Below are positions 11,886-28,349 of a DNA stretch of 64,000 nucleotides, piece after piece (within the stretch, counting starts at the first letter, position 1; each line of letters opens with the position of its first letter). The position numbers were made by a program, and so were the translations under genes. The stretch comes from Candidatus Eiseniibacteriota bacterium (lineage in GTDB: Bacteria > Eisenbacteria > RBG-16-71-46). The notes under the pieces were generated by a model. The model saw only the letters and a program-made list of their open reading frames with translations. It was not told the origin of the DNA and did not search any database. The stretch is taken from assembly GCA_038231135.1 (NCBI GenBank), contig JBBRLX010000003.1, positions 1-64,000 on the forward strand, given 5' to 3'.

Positions 11886-12271
11886 CGAGCGGTTCGACTC
11901 CGGGAGCCTGGAGCAGGCAACCCCTTCCGCCTGCCCGATCGTTCCCGGGGTGATCATGGCGGCCGGGCCCCCTCCGGGCCGCCCCCTCGCTCCGTCGAGC
12001 CTCCAGGGGGGCGTCCGCCCCGAAATCGGGAATCCTGCCCGGTGTGACCGGCCATCGTTCAATTTGCCATGCCGTTCCCGTGCTGCCTCGTGATTGGGTT
12101 CGCGGCGGATTGTTCAGTCGTGGTAATGTGGAACGGACCCTCGCCCGCCGGAGACACTCGCATCCGGCGGCATTCCGACGTGCAACCCAACCGATTTCCC
12201 CCCGTGCGGACACGTACCCGCCCAGGATCGCTGCTCCGGCGCGGTTCGGACGGCAGACGAGGAGCGACATC

Positions 12272-13987
12272 ATGCGCAGCGGTGCCCCCGTGCTTCGAAG
12301 CACAACGATCGCGAGTTTCCTGGCACTGGTTTCGGCAGTTACTCTGGCGTCGTCCCCGGCCTGGGCCGGCCCCCTGCTGGCGGCCCGCCCGTGGGTCTCG
12401 CAGCGCGCGGCCTCGGGCCCCACGAACACCACGCTCGCCCCGTCCAACGACACCTGCGCCGGCGCGATCGTGATTCCGTGCGGCACGTTCAACCTGTCCG
12501 GCGACACCAGCACCGCCACCAACGACTACACGTTCCCGTCGGACGACGCCTCGTGCACCGGTTTCATCGAGAACGGCCGCGACGTCGTGTACAAGATCAA
12601 CGCCATGGCGGGGGACAGCATCTGGGTGGACTTCAGTTCCGCCTCGACCGATGGGGCGATCTACATCGTCACCGACTGCAACAACGTTTCGGGGTCGTGC
12701 GTGGTGGGCGAGGACAGCACGAATGTCGGAGAGCTCGAGTCGCTGCGCTACAAGTTCACGGCGGCCGGCACCTACTACATGATCTTCGATTCATTCGGCA
12801 ACGACGTCGGCGGCACGTGGAGCGCGACCGGCCAGCTCATCTGCGTGGTGCAGCCGCCGCCGCCGTCCAACGACCGCTGCAACACCGCGACGCCGATCAC
12901 CTGCGGCGCGTTCTCGTTCTCGGGCAGCACCGAGTTCGCCACCAACGACTACCAGTTCCCGAGCGCGGCTGCGTCGTGCTTCAACTCCATGGCCCAGGGC
13001 AAGGACGTCACCTACAAGCTGGTCGTGGGCCCCGGTGACAGCCTGTGGGTGAACTACAACTCCTCGACGGACGGCGCCGTGTACCTCATCGCCGATTGCG
13101 CGGATCCGGTCAACACCTGCGTCGTCGGCGCCGATGCCGTGGGGGCGGGCCAGACCGAGCAGTTGCGTTACCGGTTCAATTTCGGCGGCACCTATTACCT
13201 GGTGCTCGATTCCAAGGCGCTGAACAGCTTCGGCACGTTCACGATGAGCGGCGAGTACCTCTGCCCGCAGCCGCCCAAGAACGACATCTGCGAGTTCGCG
13301 AACCCGATTCCGTGCGGCAATTTCAGCCTGTCGGGCAGCACCCAGCTCGCGAGCGACAACTACTCGTTCGACACCGACGCCCAGTCGTGCACCGGCTACC
13401 GGGCGGCGGGCCGGGACGTGGTCTACAAGGTCTACGCCACCACCGGCGACAGCCTGGCGATCGACTATCGCAGCACGGCGGACGGTTCGATCTACATCCT
13501 CACCAATTGCAACGACACGAACGGCAGTTGCGTCGCGGGCGAGGACAGCGCGGGCATCGGCGACACCGAGACGCTGCGGTACAAGTTCCACTCCACGGGC
13601 ACCTTTTACATCATCCTCGACTCGTTCGGCACCAACACGTACGGGACGTGGACCGCTACCGGCCGCATGAACTGCAAGACCACCGGGGTCACGGACCCCT
13701 CCGAACCGACCGCGCTCGCGCTCGGGGCGCCGATGCCGAATCCGTTCCGCTCCGCGACGACGATTCCGTTCTCGCTGCCGCGCCGCGGGCTCGTGACCGT
13801 GCGCCTGCTGGACCTCCAGGGTCGCGTGGTGCGGACGCTCGCCGATGGCGAGTTCGCCGCGGGCAGCCACGACATCCACTGGGATGGGCGTGACGATCAG
13901 GGCAGTCTGGTGCGAGCCGGCGTGTACTTCGTGAAATTGCGCAGCGCCGACGGCTCCGACATGCGTCGCGCCGTGTTCGTTCGATAA
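12272..13987 (+). CDS. Secreted protein with three tandem ~140-aa Cys-rich (PPC-like) modules and C-terminal FlgD-Ig/CTD-like domain
   Basis: GAGGAG RBS, signal peptide. Repeats start NDTCAGA, NDRCNTA and NDICEFA. C-terminal PNPF...LDLQGRVVR...WDG...GVYFVKL. Confidence 0.8.
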   Translation: MRSGAPVLRSTTIASFLALVSAVTLASSPAWAGPLLAARPWVSQRAASGPTNTTLAPSNDTCAGAIVIPCGTFNLSGDTSTATNDYTFPSDDASCTGFIENGRDVVYKINAMAGDSIWVDFSSASTDGAIYIVTDCNNVSGSCVVGEDSTNVGELESLRYKFTAAGTYYMIFDSFGNDVGGTWSATGQLICVVQPPPPSNDRCNTATPITCGAFSFSGSTEFATNDYQFPSAAASCFNSMAQGKDVTYKLVVGPGDSLWVNYNSSTDGAVYLIADCADPVNTCVVGADAVGAGQTEQLRYRFNFGGTYYLVLDSKALNSFGTFTMSGEYLCPQPPKNDICEFANPIPCGNFSLSGSTQLASDNYSFDTDAQSCTGYRAAGRDVVYKVYATTGDSLAIDYRSTADGSIYILTNCNDTNGSCVAGEDSAGIGDTETLRYKFHSTGTFYIILDSFGTNTYGTWTATGRMNCKTTGVTDPSEPTALALGAPMPNPFRSATTIPFSLPRRGLVTVRLLDLQGRVVRTLADGEFAAGSHDIHWDGRDDQGSLVRAGVYFVKLRSADGSDMRRAVFVR

Positions 13988-14090: not shown

Positions 14091-15392
14091 ATGCGGGTGA
14101 TGCTGGCGATGCTGTCCCACACCTACCGCGCGGGGGCGTTTCTCGACGCCGCGCGCACGCTGGGCGTCGAGGTCACGGTGGCCTCGGAGCGTGCGCAGGC
14201 GCTGGCGGCGCTGCACCCCGCCGGACACCTCACGCTCGACTTCTCCGATCCCCCGCGGGCGGCGGCGGCGATCGCCGACTTCGGGCGGCGTCACCCGCTC
14301 GACGCCGTGGTGGCCACGGATGACGAAGGGGCATGGGCGGCGGCGCTGGCGGCCCGGGAACTCGGTCTGCGTCACGCCGCGCCCGGGGCCGTGGCGGCCG
14401 CGGGTGACAAGGCGCTGATGCGCGCGGCGTTCGAGCGCGCGGGACTGCCCGGACCGCGGGTCGAGCGCTTCACCACCGCCGACGATCCCGCGTCGTTCGC
14501 GGGGCGGATGAGCTATCCCTGCGTGGTGAAGCCCACGCGCCTCGCCGCGAGCCGCGGCGTGATTCGCGCGAACGACGCCCGGGAATTCGTCGAGGCGTTC
14601 CGGCGCACCGGCGCGATCGTGGAAGCGGCGGCCGCGACGATCACGGGCCCGAGGGCCGCCGGTGCCGCGGGCGCGACCGCCCCCGGTGCGATCCTCGTCG
14701 AATCGTTCCTGCCCGGCGTGGAAGTGGCGGTCGAGGGCGTGCTCACCGCGGGAGTCCTGCGGGTGCTCGCGATGTTCGACAAACCCGATCCGCTCGACGG
14801 GCCGTGGTTCGAGGAGACGCTCTACGTCACCCCGTCGCGCCACCGGGCGCAGGTCCGGGAGGCAATCGTCGATGCGGTGGACCTTGCAGCACGGGCCCTC
14901 GGCCTCGACCACGGACCGGTGCACGCCGAGGTGCGCTGGGACGGATCCCGGGCGGTGGTGGTCGAGATTGCCCCGCGTTCGATCGGAGGGCTATGCTCAC
15001 GGGCGTTGCGGTTCGATCCCGACGGCTCGCTCGAAAGCGTGCTGTTGCGCCACGCGCTCGGCGACCCGATCGAACGGGTCGAGCGCGAATCGCGGGCTTC
15101 GGGGGTCATGATGCTGCCGATTCCCCGCGCGGGCACGCTCGCCGGGGTTCGCGGCGCAGAGGCGGCCCGCGCCGTGGCGGGCATCGACGACGTGCGCATC
15201 ACGATTCCCGTCGGGGACCGGCTGGTGCCGTTGCCCGAGGGCGCACGGTATCTGGGATTCGTGTTCGCCCGTGCCGGCACACCGGAAGCGGTGGAAGCCG
15301 CGTTGCGGGCCGCGCACGGGCTGCTCGAATTCGACATCGTCAGCGAGGCCGCGCCGCAGGCGGCACGGATCGCGAAAGGACACTCCGCATGA
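14091..15392 (+). CDS. ATP-grasp domain protein (L-amino acid ligase-like)
   Basis: DKALMR, YPCVVKPTRLAASRGV, ILVESFLPGVEVAVE, HAEVR...VEIAPRSIGG; GGGAGG RBS. Confidence 0.9.
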   Translation: MRVMLAMLSHTYRAGAFLDAARTLGVEVTVASERAQALAALHPAGHLTLDFSDPPRAAAAIADFGRRHPLDAVVATDDEGAWAAALAARELGLRHAAPGAVAAAGDKALMRAAFERAGLPGPRVERFTTADDPASFAGRMSYPCVVKPTRLAASRGVIRANDAREFVEAFRRTGAIVEAAAATITGPRAAGAAGATAPGAILVESFLPGVEVAVEGVLTAGVLRVLAMFDKPDPLDGPWFEETLYVTPSRHRAQVREAIVDAVDLAARALGLDHGPVHAEVRWDGSRAVVVEIAPRSIGGLCSRALRFDPDGSLESVLLRHALGDPIERVERESRASGVMMLPIPRAGTLAGVRGAEAARAVAGIDDVRITIPVGDRLVPLPEGARYLGFVFARAGTPEAVEAALRAAHGLLEFDIVSEAAPQAARIAKGHSA

Positions 15393-16030
15393 TCACGATC
15401 ACTCCCGTCGCCATCGGACGTATTCACGAGTTCATGGAGGCCGAGGCGGCCCAGCGGGCAGCGGGCGCTCCCCCCGACGACGCCGCGGCGCCGGCCGCCC
15501 CGGCACTCGCGCTGCGCTTCGGGGTCCAGGGCCGCGGGCCGGGCGGATTCCAGTACAAGCTGGCATTCGTGGGCGCGGCCGATCGCGCGCCGTCGGATAC
15601 CGTCGTCGACGCCGGGCCGTTCCAGGTGTTCATCGAGGCCGACAGCGTCGCCTCGCTGACGGGCGCCGTCATCGATTTCGTCGAGGGGCCCGGGGAGAGC
15701 GGGTTCAAGATCGACAATCCGAATCCGCTGTGGACCGACCCGGTCGCCCAGGCGGTGCAGAAGGTGCTCGATGACGACATCAATCCCGCGGTGGGATCGC
15801 ACGGGGGCTGGGTGTCGCTGCTGGATGTGAAGGACCAGGTGGCCTACGTGCAGCTCGGGGGCGGCTGCCAGGGCTGCGGCATGGCCGACGTCACGCTCAA
15901 GCAGGGCATCGAGGTCCGCATCAAGGAGATGGTGCCGGCGATCCGCGGGATCGTGGACACCACGGATCATGCGGGGGGCTCGAACCCCTACTATCGCCCG
16001 GCGAAGGGCGGCGCCTCGCCGTACTCGTGA
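15389..16030 (+). CDS. nfuA: Fe-S cluster carrier NfuA (degenerate A-type domain + NifU-C domain)
   Basis: GAVIDFV...GFKIDNPN and INPAVGSHGGWV...GGGCQGC...TLKQGIE...DTTDHAGGSNPYY. ATGA overlap. Confidence 0.85.
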   Translation: MITITPVAIGRIHEFMEAEAAQRAAGAPPDDAAAPAAPALALRFGVQGRGPGGFQYKLAFVGAADRAPSDTVVDAGPFQVFIEADSVASLTGAVIDFVEGPGESGFKIDNPNPLWTDPVAQAVQKVLDDDINPAVGSHGGWVSLLDVKDQVAYVQLGGGCQGCGMADVTLKQGIEVRIKEMVPAIRGIVDTTDHAGGSNPYYRPAKGGASPYS

Positions 16031-17454
16031 CGCCGCGCGCCGGGCGCGCGCCACGCCACGCTCTGCTCGTCTCCACCTACGATCTGGGGCACTCGCCGTT
16101 CGGCCTGGCGTCCCCGGCGGCGTGGCTCAGGGAGCGCGGCTGGCGCGTCTCGGTCGCCGACACCGCGATCGATCCGCTCGACGAGTCCGCCGCGGCCGCC
16201 GCCGACCTGATCGCCGTGTACGTCCCTATGCACACGGCCACGCGCCTCGCCGCCCGGTTGCTGCCCCGGCTGCGGTCGCTGAACCCGCGCGCACACGTCA
16301 TGCTCTACGGACTCTACGCCGCGCTCAACCGCGATCACCTCGTGGCGCTGGGGGCCGACTCGGTCGTGAGCGGCGAATTCGAAGGCGCGCTCGCGGCGCT
16401 GGCGGCCGCGATCGAGGCGGCGGTCGACCCGCGCACCGTCGAGACGGGACCCGAGGTGGTGCTCGACCGGCTCGAGTTTCGCGTGCCCGATCGCACCGGG
16501 CTGCCGCCGCCCTCGCGCTATGCGCATGTCCACCTGCCCGACGGCTCCATCCGCGCCGCCGGTCACACCGAAGCCAGCCGCGGCTGCCGGCACCACTGCC
16601 GGCACTGTCCGATCGTGCCGGTCTACGACGGACGGTTCCGGATCGTGCCGCGCGAGATCGTGCTGGAGGACATCCGGCGGCAGGTCGCGCAGGGCGCGGG
16701 CCACATCACGTTCGGCGATCCGGATTTCTGGAATGGTCCCGGACACGCGATGCCGCTGGTCCGCGAGTTGCACGCCGAGCACCCGCATCTGACCTACGAC
16801 GTGACGATCAAGATCGAACATCTGCTGGCCCACGCGGACCGGCTGCCGGAGCTGGCCGCCACCGGCTGCCTGTTCGTGACCAGCGCCGTCGAAGCCGTCG
16901 ACGACCGCATCCTCGAGCGTCTCGACAAGCGCCACACGCGGGCCGACTTCGTCATGGCCGCGCAACGGATGCGGGCGGCCGGGCTCACGCTGCACCCGAC
17001 GTTCGTGGCGTTCACGCCGTGGACCACGGCGGCCGGCTGGCTCGACATGCTCGAGACCATCGAGGAGCTGGGGCTGATCGAGCACGTGGCGCCGATCCAG
17101 CATGCGATCCGGCTGCTGGTGCCGGCGGGCTCGCGGTTGCTCGAACTGCCGGAGGTGCGCGGCTGGACGGGGCCGTTCGATCGCGAGGCGCTCGTCCATC
17201 CCTGGCGGCATCCGGATGCGGAGGTGGACCTATTGCAGCAGCGGGCGCTCGAGGTCGTGACGGCCGGAGCGGCCGCCGGGTGGCCGCGAGCGTCGACGTT
17301 CGAGCGGTTGCGGGAGCTGGCCGCCCGGAGCGCAGGCCGGGCGGCGCGCCGCGTCGCCGACGCCGGCTCCTGGCGCCGGGCCCCGGTTCCCTATCTCAGC
17401 GAGCCGTGGTACTGCTGAGCAGAGCCGCTCGCGGAGCCGGCGGCTCCCGTTTGA
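16027..17454 (+). CDS. CUAEP-tail radical SAM selenoprotein (B12-binding-like N-terminus); Sec at TGA 17416-17418, true stop 17452-17454
   Basis: CxxxCxxC motif EASRGCRHHCRHC. The 3' end reads gag ccg tgg tac tgc TGA gca gag ccg = EPWYC-U-AEP, then LAEPAAPV*. Hairpin directly downstream. GTGA overlap with nfuA. Confidence 0.85.
17419..17449 (+). promoter_or_regulatory. Candidate bacterial SECIS hairpin
   Basis: GAGCCGC(17422-28)/GCGGCTC(17440-46) stem, or alternatively GGAGCC-GGC-GGCTCC(17433-47). Both give a G-starting apical loop 15-21 nt after the UGA. Confidence 0.6.
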
Positions 17455-17585
17455 TGGAAGTTCGATCTCGCACGCGGAGCCTCCCGGCTTCCGGTCGCCG
17501 TGCGGTTCGAGTCACGTAGGGCGGGGGAATCCCGCCAACCCACGCAGCCGGGCCTTGGGTCCCGGCGCAATCACGGAGCCGAACG

Positions 17586-18026
17586 ATGAAGCGCACGGCA
17601 GCAGCGGAGTGGAAGGGCGGCCTCAAGGACGGTGCGGGAATTGTGTCGACGGGCAGCGGAACGCTGAAGAACGTCCGCTACTCCTTCCGGGACCGCTTCG
17701 AAGATGGACAGGGCACGAACCCCGAGGAATTGATCGCGGCCGCGCACGCGGGGTGTTTCTCGATGGCGCTGTCGGGGGAGCTCGGCAAGGCCAACCTGAC
17801 GCCCGACAGCATCCAGACCACGGCGAACCTGACGCTCGACAAGACCGATGCCGGCTGGACGGTGACCGCGATCCGCCTCGACCTCCGCGCCCGCGTCCCC
17901 GGCGCCACCCCCGAAGCCTTCGACAAGGCCGCGCAGGACGCCAAGCGCGGCTGCCCGATCTCGCGGCTGCTGAACACCGAGATCACGCTCGACGCCAAAC
18001 TGGAATCCGAACCCGCGAGGAACTGA
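17586..18026 (+). CDS. osmC: OsmC family peroxiredoxin
   Basis: WKGGLKDGAG...GTNPEELIAAAHAGCFSMAL...AKRGCPISRLL with two catalytic Cys. Confidence 0.92.
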   Translation: MKRTAAAEWKGGLKDGAGIVSTGSGTLKNVRYSFRDRFEDGQGTNPEELIAAAHAGCFSMALSGELGKANLTPDSIQTTANLTLDKTDAGWTVTAIRLDLRARVPGATPEAFDKAAQDAKRGCPISRLLNTEITLDAKLESEPARN

Positions 18027-25409: not shown

Positions 25410-28349
25410 TCAGCGCATGAGGACGATGGCCTGCGACGACCTGGCCCCCTGCTGGGCCAGCCGCACGAAGTAGGGTCCGTTCGCCACCGGGCGGCCCGCC
25501 GCGTCGCGGCCATCCCAGTTCGAGGAGTGGCGCCCGGCTTCCTGATTCCCGGCCACCAGCGAGCGCACCAGGCGGCCCTGGATGTCGAACACCGCCAGCG
25601 TCACCGGTCCGCGCGACGCCAGGGAGTACACCAATTGGGTCGAACCGCGGAACGGATTCGGGCTCGCCGGCGCGAGCTGGAACACCGCCGCCGGCGCATG
25701 GTCGTCCACACCGACGCTGGTGGGGAACGCGTAAAGTGCGAAGTCGTCGACCGCGGCCTCCACGATCGACGGAAAGGTGAGGTCGTCGGTGGCCACGAAG
25801 CGCATTTTCATGTTGTTCGTTGGCGTCACGTAGTCCTTGATCGAGAACATCACGCGCCGCCAGGACTGGTCGGTCTCGAGCGTGTTCTCGACCGGCGTCC
25901 AGGTCGAGCCGCCGTTGTTCGAAATATCGACCTTCCACGGGTCCTGGCCGGGATTGTCGCCGCCATTGTTCGAATACCAGCGCCAGTAGCTGACGACGGG
26001 GCGGATCAGGCCGCCCGCCGTGGCATCGAACGTCGAGGACGTGAGCGTGGTCTTGCCGCCATCCACGTCGTTGACGGCCGGAGGGTCGTCGGGCAGCGCG
26101 TTGCCGGTGACGTAACACAGCGTGCCGTTCGGCGAGTGATCCGCGCCCGGCTGCACCGCCGAGCCCACCGGCACCGCCCGAATCCAAATGCCGGTCGTCG
26201 CCGCGTCGCCTGCGGCGCCGACGGTCCATCCGAGGTCGTTGTCGAAATCGTTCTCGAGCAGCGTCGAGAACGGACCGCCGATGAAGCTGAAGTAGCGTCC
26301 CGGCGCGCCGGCCGGCTGAGTCTTGACGCCGCCGTCGATCGTGCTCGCGCGCACGTAGCAGCGGATCACCGCCGACGCCTGCGCCGGCACCTGGGCGCCG
26401 TATTCGTCGGGGTTGCCGGTGGGGAACATCGGTGCCGAGGTGAACGCGGCGCCGTTGATGGAGTAGAACAGCCGCGGCGAGGTCACATCGAGCCCGCCGA
26501 ACGTGCCGTTGTAGGAGATCGTGGCCGTGACCGGGAACGGGCCGGTGTTCGGCTGGTCGTCCGCGACGACGTCGATGCCGATGAAGTAGTTCGTGCCAAT
26601 CCCATGATTGTTGAACGCGGCGACGATCTGGTTGTAATGGGGGGTGCCGTCGGAAAGATTGCCGTTGTTGTCGTCGGCGACCAGGACGTCGACGAAGTAC
26701 TCGTTGAACGCGACGCCGTCGTCGTTATCGTCGGCCAGACCGTACTTGGCGTAATGCATCAACCGGCCGGCGGTCGCGAGCCCCAACGACTGCCGCAGCT
26801 CCCACATCGCGCCGGCCAGGATCTCACCGGTCTCCTGCGGATCCACCGCGTTCCAATCTTGCGGCCACTGGCGGGTGTTCAGGCAGGTGCGGAGACTCGT
26901 GCCGGGGCCAAACAGGCCGCTGCCGATCACCGGATTGTCGATCATGTACGAGTCATAGACGTCGGCCAGCCCTTCGGAGAGTGGCTGGTTGGCCAGGCCC
27001 TGGGGTCTGCCGTGGGCTACGTACAGGTTGTCGTTCACGGCGTGGCCGTACTCGTGATACACGAGATCGGCGGTGCTGGCGGTGTTCGGGCAGCCACTGC
27101 CGGCCGAGAGCAGGCTCAGCGAGTTCGTGCCGAAATCCCAGAACGCGTTGCAGTTGTCGCTCAGGTCCGTGTAGGTGGTGAGCGGGTAATCGTTGGCGGT
27201 GTAGGTGGGGTCGAGCGTCTTGACGTAGCTGTGGGCGCGGTTCACGTGATAGAACGCATCGCGCTCCGACTGCTGGGAGTTGGTGGACAGCCACGCGATG
27301 TTCGTCGGCGACGACGACGTGCTCTTCGAGAAGCTGCCGTCGCCGGTTGGGCACACATCGCTCACGCACCGGTCGACATTGCAGTACGGACCGAGGAACG
27401 CCGACGTCACCACGACCGTGCCGGTCGAAGCTCCGGAGTAGTTGCCGAGGCTGTCGGTGTTGACGGCCAGCGCGCCGATGTTCACGGTGGCACTGCGCAG
27501 CGGCTTGGTCTGGAGCGGGTCGGTCGGCAGCAGCGGGTGAACGGTGGCGTTGACGTTGCCCGTCATGAGATGCCGCAGCATGGAGCTGCGCTGGACGATC
27601 TCGCCGTTGGCGGCGTCGACCAGCGTGTACCAGCTCTGGCGCGGGTCCATCGTGATCACATGCAGCTCGTAGACCAGCCGGAAGTTCGTGGCGCCGCCGC
27701 GGTTCACGGGCAGGATGTACAGCCGGTCGCCGTCGACCCGGTCGCGCGCCGCGTCGAACGCGAGGCCGCGCTTGGCGGCCTCGCGAGCGACCGACAGCGG
27801 GATGCGCGGGCTCGTCACGAGGCCTGTGGGAACCGCGTAGTGATCGGCGCCGAACGCCATCAGGTTGCCGTTCACCGCCACGCGGAACTCCCAGTCCGCG
27901 TTCAGCACCGGCACGCCCGACACCATCTGCTGATACCGCACGTACCAGACGTTCCCCGCCCGGTGCGTGTCGGTCAGCGCGAGCTGGGGAGCGCTGCCGA
28001 GCAGCGGAGCGTTCTGCGCGACGAAATCGCGCACCGACCGGTCCACCGCCGTGGCGTCGTCGCGGAATCCGGTCAGCGGAATGGCGCGGCCGAACGCCCG
28101 GTGCGGCGTGTGGGTGGCCTCGTTCCAGCTTGCGGTCCAGGTTCCGTAGCGATGCTGGAACGAACTCCAGGCCGGGGCCTGGGACAGCTGGCGCTGCACG
28201 GCGGGACGCGGCTCACGCAGCACTCGGTCGGCGATCGTGCCGATCGCACCTTCGGAATCCGAGCCCACTCGCACGTATGCGCCGGCGATCGATGCGGTGA
28301 CGGCGAGGCCGAAGGGGATCATCCAGACGAATCGTCCCGGCGACGTCAT
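25410..28349 (-). CDS. Secreted thermolysin/fungalysin-like (M4/M36) metallopeptidase with propeptide and C-terminal FlgD-Ig/CTD-like domain
   Basis: FTP-like (VRYQQMVSGVPV) and PepSY-like (VDAANGEIV) propeptide. NAFW, HEYGH, LSEGLAD. C-terminal PNPF...FDIQGRLVR...WDG...GPYFVRL. Confidence 0.82.
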   Translation of the reverse strand: MTSPGRFVWMIPFGLAVTASIAGAYVRVGSDSEGAIGTIADRVLREPRPAVQRQLSQAPAWSSFQHRYGTWTASWNEATHTPHRAFGRAIPLTGFRDDATAVDRSVRDFVAQNAPLLGSAPQLALTDTHRAGNVWYVRYQQMVSGVPVLNADWEFRVAVNGNLMAFGADHYAVPTGLVTSPRIPLSVAREAAKRGLAFDAARDRVDGDRLYILPVNRGGATNFRLVYELHVITMDPRQSWYTLVDAANGEIVQRSSMLRHLMTGNVNATVHPLLPTDPLQTKPLRSATVNIGALAVNTDSLGNYSGASTGTVVVTSAFLGPYCNVDRCVSDVCPTGDGSFSKSTSSSPTNIAWLSTNSQQSERDAFYHVNRAHSYVKTLDPTYTANDYPLTTYTDLSDNCNAFWDFGTNSLSLLSAGSGCPNTASTADLVYHEYGHAVNDNLYVAHGRPQGLANQPLSEGLADVYDSYMIDNPVIGSGLFGPGTSLRTCLNTRQWPQDWNAVDPQETGEILAGAMWELRQSLGLATAGRLMHYAKYGLADDNDDGVAFNEYFVDVLVADDNNGNLSDGTPHYNQIVAAFNNHGIGTNYFIGIDVVADDQPNTGPFPVTATISYNGTFGGLDVTSPRLFYSINGAAFTSAPMFPTGNPDEYGAQVPAQASAVIRCYVRASTIDGGVKTQPAGAPGRYFSFIGGPFSTLLENDFDNDLGWTVGAAGDAATTGIWIRAVPVGSAVQPGADHSPNGTLCYVTGNALPDDPPAVNDVDGGKTTLTSSTFDATAGGLIRPVVSYWRWYSNNGGDNPGQDPWKVDISNNGGSTWTPVENTLETDQSWRRVMFSIKDYVTPTNNMKMRFVATDDLTFPSIVEAAVDDFALYAFPTSVGVDDHAPAAVFQLAPASPNPFRGSTQLVYSLASRGPVTLAVFDIQGRLVRSLVAGNQEAGRHSSNWDGRDAAGRPVANGPYFVRLAQQGARSSQAIVLMR

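Follow-up and report, generated by a model that had tools for sequence, protein, structure and literature searches.

Radical SAM proteins that end in a CUAEP or CCAEP tail have already been named as an uncharacterised family by Haft and Gwadz (accessible part of bioRxiv 10.1101/2022.07.06.499078), and no functional study of this family was found, although subscription papers and supplements (selenoprotein tables, ArsL networks) may hold more; the terms CUAEP, CCAEP and NF040546 are absent from PMC13326102. The closest studied relative of the protein described here is ArsL (33% identity over 415 aa), which cleaves SAM to MTA and an aminocarboxypropyl (ACP) radical and forms a carbon-arsenic bond; its RCCLKC tail is needed for As(III) binding and binds no auxiliary cluster (bioRxiv 10.1101/2024.02.01.577332). 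In PaArsL all three cysteines bind arsenite, and single Cys-to-Ala replacements are reported to abolish activity (bioRxiv 10.64898/2026.04.29.721666, accessible part). An ArsL mutant called 'MCCA' is reported to be the most efficient on methylarsenate (open portion of PMC13598754); its name may mean that only the vicinal CC is kept and that two thiols suffice for a methylated arsenical (an unverified reading). AprD4 and ArsL homologues have a Rossmann-like domain, yet are reported to bind no cobalamin (PMC12931638, in the part available). As far as the accessible texts go, the L-amino acid ligase BL00235 makes Met-Gly and Met-Met (PMC6920838), and in the bacterial SECIS (bSECIS) consensus the loop lies 16-37 nt from the UGA (PMC13188914).

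The gene of interest lies in a window of 64,000 nucleotides (the whole stretch of Candidatus Eiseniibacteriota DNA that was analysed) and is the last of three overlapping genes, behind those for an ATP-grasp ligase and an NfuA-like Fe-S carrier (Table 1). The ligase stop and the nfuA start share ATGA, the nfuA end and the radical SAM start share GTGA, and the ligase start, ATG 14091, is preceded by GGGAGG; a promoter and terminator scan gave nothing above chance. The table-11 open reading frame of the radical SAM gene (16027-17418) encodes 463 aa and ends SEPWYC. Its 3' end reads gag ccg tgg tac tgc TGA gca gag ccg ctc gcg gag ccg gcg gct ccc gtt TGA, and the product of read-through has 475 aa, ends WYCUAEPLAEPAAPV and is 12 residues longer than the ORF call. 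An earlier note on this DNA had described the first TGA (17416-18) after SEPWYC, the codons gca gag ccg behind it and the 11 residues up to the TGA at 17452-54, and these coordinates and codons are exact.

Table 1. Features of the cassette, in window coordinates.
Feature	Position	Strand	Details and basis
ATP-grasp L-amino-acid-ligase-like gene	14091..15392	+	433 aa; Pfam ATP-grasp_4, LAL_C2, ATPgrasp_N
NfuA-like Fe-S carrier gene	15389..16030	+	213 aa; Pfam NifU and Fe-S_biosyn
Predicted CUAEP-tail radical SAM selenoprotein gene	16027..17454	+	475 aa with Sec464; predicted start; NF040546 match and translation
CxxxCxxC [4Fe-4S]/SAM motif	16585..16608	+	C187, C191, C194; invariant in 68 aligned members
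Cys463-Sec464 codons TGC TGA	17413..17418	+	TGC 17413-15 = Cys463; TGA 17416-18 in frame
Minimum-energy hairpin (alternative fold, not the conserved SECIS)	17422..17446	+	folding, shuffles, homologue pairing
Conserved bacterial SECIS upper stem-loop, GGAGCC-GGC-GGCTCC	17433..17447	+	covariation; UGA-form specificity
Inferred true stop TGA	17452..17454	+	11-residue tail = median tail of UGA-form homologues

In an NCBIfam profile search the 463-aa form scored 622.5 bits against NF040546 (cut-off 500), which bears out the membership of the CUAEP/CCAEP family proposed in the earlier note, and the read-through form scored 635.1 bits over profile positions 2-467 with one TGA read through. The next-best family was the ArsL model NF040542 (275.4 bits, under its cut-off of 450), the third-best model reached 45 bits, and all others scored no higher than that. 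Pfam placed a B12-binding-like domain at residues 14-126 (43.5 bits) in addition to the radical SAM domain. The public protein collection holds the gene as the 463-aa product (P0003), and of the top 120 matches in the collection 57 go no further than the first Cys and 62 have CCAEP. Truncation by gene callers had been suspected, and it does affect about half of the full-tail members in the collection (57/120 top matches); a protein annotated only up to that Cys lacks what is probably the enzyme's working end.

The UGA at 17416-18 is very likely read as selenocysteine. The loci were sampled from species-representative genomes as the best 80 of at least 545 confirmed relatives (not counted are the row of the window itself and, in L043, a second match that was spurious), and in these 80 the site codon is TGA in 35 and TGC or TGT in 44, with one locus lacking the motif. 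Neither TAA nor TAG occurs at the site in the 79 motif-bearing loci of this best-80 sample, and xEP is conserved past it in all 79. Cultured organisms with the UGA form include Ktedonobacter racemifer (L037) and Thermosporothrix hazakensis (L032), and Chloroflexus islandicus (L065) has a natural Cys form. In a quick maximum-likelihood phylogeny that comprises 68 members and 4 ArsL-type proteins (11 of the 79 loci, partial or frameshifted, and one duplicate being omitted), Sec and Cys forms are interleaved, with 11-12 changes, at least four of them forced by strong branches. Among 41 genomes searched (the own one plus 40 relatives) the family cut-off was passed in 11 genomes; all 11 matches carry one TGA at the site, and selA was found in all 11 genomes. 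selA, selB and selD, each over its cut-off, and tRNA-Sec are all present in the own genome (93% complete), where SelD is a Cys form. Formate dehydrogenase, taken as a control for Sec use, gave no over-cut-off match and no in-frame stops. In the wider sample (best 80 of at least 545 loci) selA was found in 29/35 UGA-form and 33/43 Cys-form genomes and was therefore rejected as a marker that discriminates between the two forms; completeness figures are not given for the six UGA-form genomes without a match. A TGA within the ligase match of G015, considered as a second Sec codon, is a normal stop. The counts take in three unpublished genomes: G026 is one of the 41, and G049 (L017) and G116 (L084) enter the loci counts, the alignments and the selA counts, G116 also the DUF169 observation given below; none of the conclusions depends on these three alone.

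A conserved stem-loop follows the UGA. It pairs 17433-38 with 17442-47 (6 pairs, -10.2 kcal/mol) around the loop GGC at 17439-41, 20 nt after the UGA, and its spacing, loop, stem and energy all lie within the bSECIS criteria (a loop of 3-9 nt with G in its first two nucleotides, a stem of at least 4 pairs and an MFE of at most -7.5). In 36 UGA-form sequences 83.8% of the cells of this stem, which is centred on an invariant C-G pair and the loop G, are paired, a value that none of 500 shuffles reached and that exceeds all slid controls, with 30 double changes over five of the six pairs; the stem was derived from the very sequences tested, which favours it over its slid versions. A core with all 5 pairs, in one or the other of two loop registers, is present in 39 of 45 UGA forms versus 2 of 42 Cys forms (3 duplicates collapsed among 90 rows), counts that are not p-values because the kin are not independent; in the genome background the core follows 576 of 84,593 TGA trinucleotides (0.68%). 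The loop is GGC here and AGTT(G) in most NF040546 members. From these comparisons, SelB would almost certainly bind the GGC-loop hairpin and insert Sec464.

The earlier note had singled out another hairpin, starting 3 nt past the UGA. It is indeed the predicted minimum-energy fold (loop GGA, -16.4 kcal/mol) and overlaps the conserved stem, but its loop, at 14 nt, falls outside the 16-37 nt range, and its strength does not exceed what chance gives (z -1.33 with 21/200 shuffles as good, and z -1.02 with 29/200). In the 36 UGA-form sequences 71.4% of its cells are paired, the same as the shuffled mean (216/500 as high); its covariation score alone was equalled in 2/500 shuffles, yet lay below that of a slid control. 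What stands of that claim is a SECIS 3' of the UGA, in an overlapping stem other than the one named. In a longer fold (17416-17515; z -2.4, 3/200 shuffles) the spacer downstream base-pairs with the SECIS region, an arrangement that would hide the SECIS in RNA that is not being translated, and GCGGAGCC occurs a second time at about 17476.

The second UGA, just 33 nt on, would have to terminate, the SECIS competes with the stabler alternative fold (-16.4 vs -10.2 kcal/mol), and selA is missing from 6/35 UGA-form genomes searched, but an ordinary stop with the protein ending at Cys463 is exceedingly improbable in view of a site that is always TGA, TGC or TGT in the best-80 sample, the xEP kept beyond it, a hairpin specific to UGA forms, and a SECIS stem that becomes the predicted fold once the first 9-14 nt past the UGA (ribosome-covered) are removed. 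The alignment of homologues and the search for selA, selB, selD and tRNA-Sec that had been proposed as checks thus both came out on the side of a predicted selenoprotein with a vicinal Cys-Sec C-terminal tail, for which codon alternation, SECIS and Sec machinery all speak. Judged by sequence, the gene is a real selenoprotein gene of a catalogued family, of which both the family and its Sec were already known; the Sec assignment itself would not surprise a specialist.

The upstream ligase travels with the enzyme. A close ligase homologue was found in 10/11 enzyme-bearing genomes versus 0/30 of the others (41 searched), with 51-61% identity among the relatives; in the eleventh, which has no close ligase, a contig ends just upstream of the enzyme gene, and 3 of the 30 enzyme-less relatives have ligases at 30% identity only. 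Across the best 80 of at least 545 loci, the ligase lies within 37 (36 by tblastn), and 34 of the 42 genomes behind the other 43 loci encode it elsewhere. Of the same best 80 loci 49 have YggX and 4 have NfuA, nfuA is adjacent in all ten of the relatives' regions (10/10), and of 18 unlinked ligase genes inspected (out of 34) 8 have YggX nearby and 3 NfuA. The NfuA-like protein of the window scores 105 bits against TIGR03341 (cut-off 269), and YggX has no match in the own genome (93% complete). The idea that NfuA partners the enzyme exclusively was rejected: it is present in 12/30 relatives that lack the radical SAM enzyme and the ligase, so that it is better seen as a helper than as a dedicated part. 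In G001, a genome of the same genus (97% complete), nfuA is present and both the ligase and the radical SAM gene are missing, which makes these two an accessory pair.

Other neighbours (YbaK, formyltransferase, aconitase, HAD) look like lineage synteny; the accessible part of a tRNA-deacylase paper (PMC13149037) does not cover the locus. An OsmC peroxiredoxin gene (17586-18026) lies downstream of the cassette and is also near it in L009, L012 and L115, a proximity that is probably lineage synteny too. In several Acidobacteriota genomes (L123, L132, L133, L135 and L137-L139) the ligase gene is near yggX and away from the radical SAM gene, and the YggX frames there are extended at the N terminus by MGCG, with one more cysteine. 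The window also encodes large secreted-type proteins at 12044-13987 and 25410-28349, the former with a C-terminal FlgD-Ig domain and repeated Cys-containing modules.

The AlphaFold2 model of the radical SAM protein has a pLDDT of 92.5 and a pTM of 0.92, with pLDDT 86 for residues 451-460 and 58 for 461-470, which is consistent with a tail that is docked and then mobile. The top Foldseek match is AprD4 (6FD2; E 9.4e-19, TM 0.69), TsrM, MgmA, OxsB and TokK are among the top fold matches, and MiaB, RimO and LipA are among the fold matches; a single-sequence search of the PDB returned 0 matches, with no solved structure close by sequence. AprD4 ranks first by default because the PDB searches gave no ArsL chain. 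Of 94 family-conserved columns, 52 are identical in all 4 ArsL-type proteins (2 of them being the end-anchored CC) and 42 differ, among them M68-H69-T70, P195, K262, E264 and H193, the last invariant in the CxxxCxxC motif of the 68 aligned members.

The best solved relative of the ligase is BL00235 (3VOT), with E 1.4e-70 using the family profile and 8.4e-31 for the next. The preference of BL00235 for Met is only a lead to the substrate of the ligase here; the methionine backbone is that of an ACP-X product, which fits the ligase link, agreeing with it without showing it. Three of the four ArsL-type clusters inspected also hold an ATP-grasp gene (Alicyclobacillus, Priestia and Pantoea, not Pseudomonas). 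Two of these ligases were compared with the one in the window and share 24-27% identity with it, no closer than generic L-amino-acid ligases, so that orthology is unsupported. The three plasmid clusters, which are of the ArsL type with RCCLKC (L118:1427-2659 in Alicyclobacillus, L119:1732-2955 in Priestia and L121:7569-8774 in Pantoea), have the ligase beside ars genes, which suggests arsinothricin-containing peptides; a literature search on arsinothricin and ATP-grasp found no paper on the ligases of ArsL clusters.

Arsenic genes were sought around the family loci and such a context was not found: ArsR, ArsC, ArsB, ArsM-like and ArsN-like queries each matched 1/92 sequences, and ArsQ, ArsH, ArsI and aquaporin queries matched 0/92. 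The own genome has, on another contig (C42:20500-22146), an arsR-arsM pair (arsenite methyltransferase-like) and a short acr3 fragment. Genes for a MerB-like lyase and for DUF169 are present in both actinobacterial loci (L007:12174-13579 and L060:1079-9727), which hints faintly at a soft metal or metalloid; L060 also has MerR and ArsR regulators, a PLP decarboxylase and a fusion of ligase and GNAT that ends CTATSCTC, and in L084 a DUF169 gene stands between enzyme and ligase. Two proteobacterial genomes have a linalool dehydratase/isomerase-like gene (PF18566; L022:620-1999 and L062:5230-6867) upstream of their Cys-form members, and the ligase has no match in either; one of the two has the region in two copies (L062, L081). 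The gammaproteobacterial match L075:7001-8758 spans about 1,750 bases against the usual 1,400 or so, which suggests that this member carries an insertion.

The gene is predicted to help make a small peptide together with the amino-acid ligase. The Cys-Sec tail would likely hold a soft heteroatom substrate and, being mobile, would deliver it; the enzyme would transfer the aminocarboxypropyl part of SAM to the heteroatom, as ArsL does; the methionine-like ACP-X amino acid would be the substrate of the neighbouring ligase, which would likely join it to another amino acid; and NfuA (YggX in other phyla) would maintain the cluster. By analogy with ArsL, cleavage of SAM to MTA and an ACP species is somewhat probable. 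Kinship with ArsL and the link to the ligase, weighed against the absence of an ars context and of a third ligand, lead us to favour ArsL-like ACP transfer onto a soft heteroatom that the Cys-Sec pair holds, with dipeptide ligation as the next step, as a tentative reading that may well be wrong. The fuller version, an undescribed pathway spread over several phyla in which a Sec ligand traps a metalloid, or some other soft heteroatom, for ArsL-type chemistry and BL00235-type dipeptide ligation, is less likely, if credible. The best single substrate candidate, a trivalent arsenical such as methylarsenite, is doubtful when taken by itself. If the pathway is real, it would contain a second radical SAM family that transfers ACP and has the canonical motif, and its products would be a new class of organometalloid peptides.

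Three other readings keep the Sec and change the chemistry. C-terminal Cys-Sec pairs act as a redox arm in animal thioredoxin reductase, and the mobile pair might do so here, supplying electrons or a hydrogen atom, in an enzyme that, like AprD4, acts on an organic substrate through the canonical 5'-deoxyadenosyl radical. This is rather unlikely; the top rank of the AprD4 fold, the presence of just two tail ligands, the lack of arsenic context and the substrate-side residues that differ from ArsL are in its favour, and AprD4 shares 18% identity with the protein where ArsL shares 33%. Alternatively, the tail might carry sulfur or selenium (as a persulfide or selenosulfide) or ligate a sacrificial cluster, with S or Se inserted into a metabolite, which we consider unlikely. 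NfuA reloads lipoyl synthase with iron and sulfur, and NfuA or YggX would do the same here; one or the other recurs at the enzyme loci and the relatives' regions in the numbers given above and beside 11 of the 18 unlinked ligase genes. L008 and L028 have a rhodanese gene nearby, and MiaB, RimO and LipA appear among the fold matches; but the rhodanese neighbours are sporadic, these sulfur-inserting folds rank below AprD4, TsrM and OxsB, and the analogous ArsL tail binds no auxiliary cluster. A Sec-tailed, cobalamin-dependent radical SAM methyltransferase, to which the Pfam B12-binding domain and the TsrM, MgmA, OxsB and TokK fold matches point, is very unlikely, as AprD4 and ArsL homologues are reported to bind no cobalamin and no B12-methylase NCBIfam model exceeds 45 bits.

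Returning to ACP transfer followed by ligation as the preferred reading, the family is widespread, and the ligase link and ArsL kinship allow a simple first experiment, on the SAM fragments formed and on binding by the tail. Compared with known systems, the protein does not differ in kind from NF040546 members: it lies over the cut-off and has the same C-(U/C)-A-E-P tail, the same Cys/Sec alternation and CxxxCxxC, with the difference that the Fe-S helper here is NfuA and in most loci YggX. With AprD4 it shares the Rossmann-like domain and the radical SAM barrel, but the identity is 18% and NF033070 gives 30 against a cut-off of 500. The ligase resembles BL00235 as an ATP-grasp protein with a LAL_C2 domain and has it as best solved relative by a wide margin, but the two are distant when compared as single proteins (phmmer E 2.4e-28), the likeness being one of sequence. 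The enzyme has the same domain layout as ArsL, a C-terminal vicinal pair (CC in ArsL, CU here) and an ATP-grasp protein encoded nearby, as in three of the four ArsL-type clusters. It differs in ending WYCUAEP, with two ligands, where ArsL has RCCLKC with three As-binding cysteines, in having His in the cluster motif where ArsL has Tyr, about 45 extra residues before the tail and Sec, in staying below the NF040542 cut-off, and in its surroundings, since ArsL clusters are full of ars genes and none is enriched at the loci of this family.
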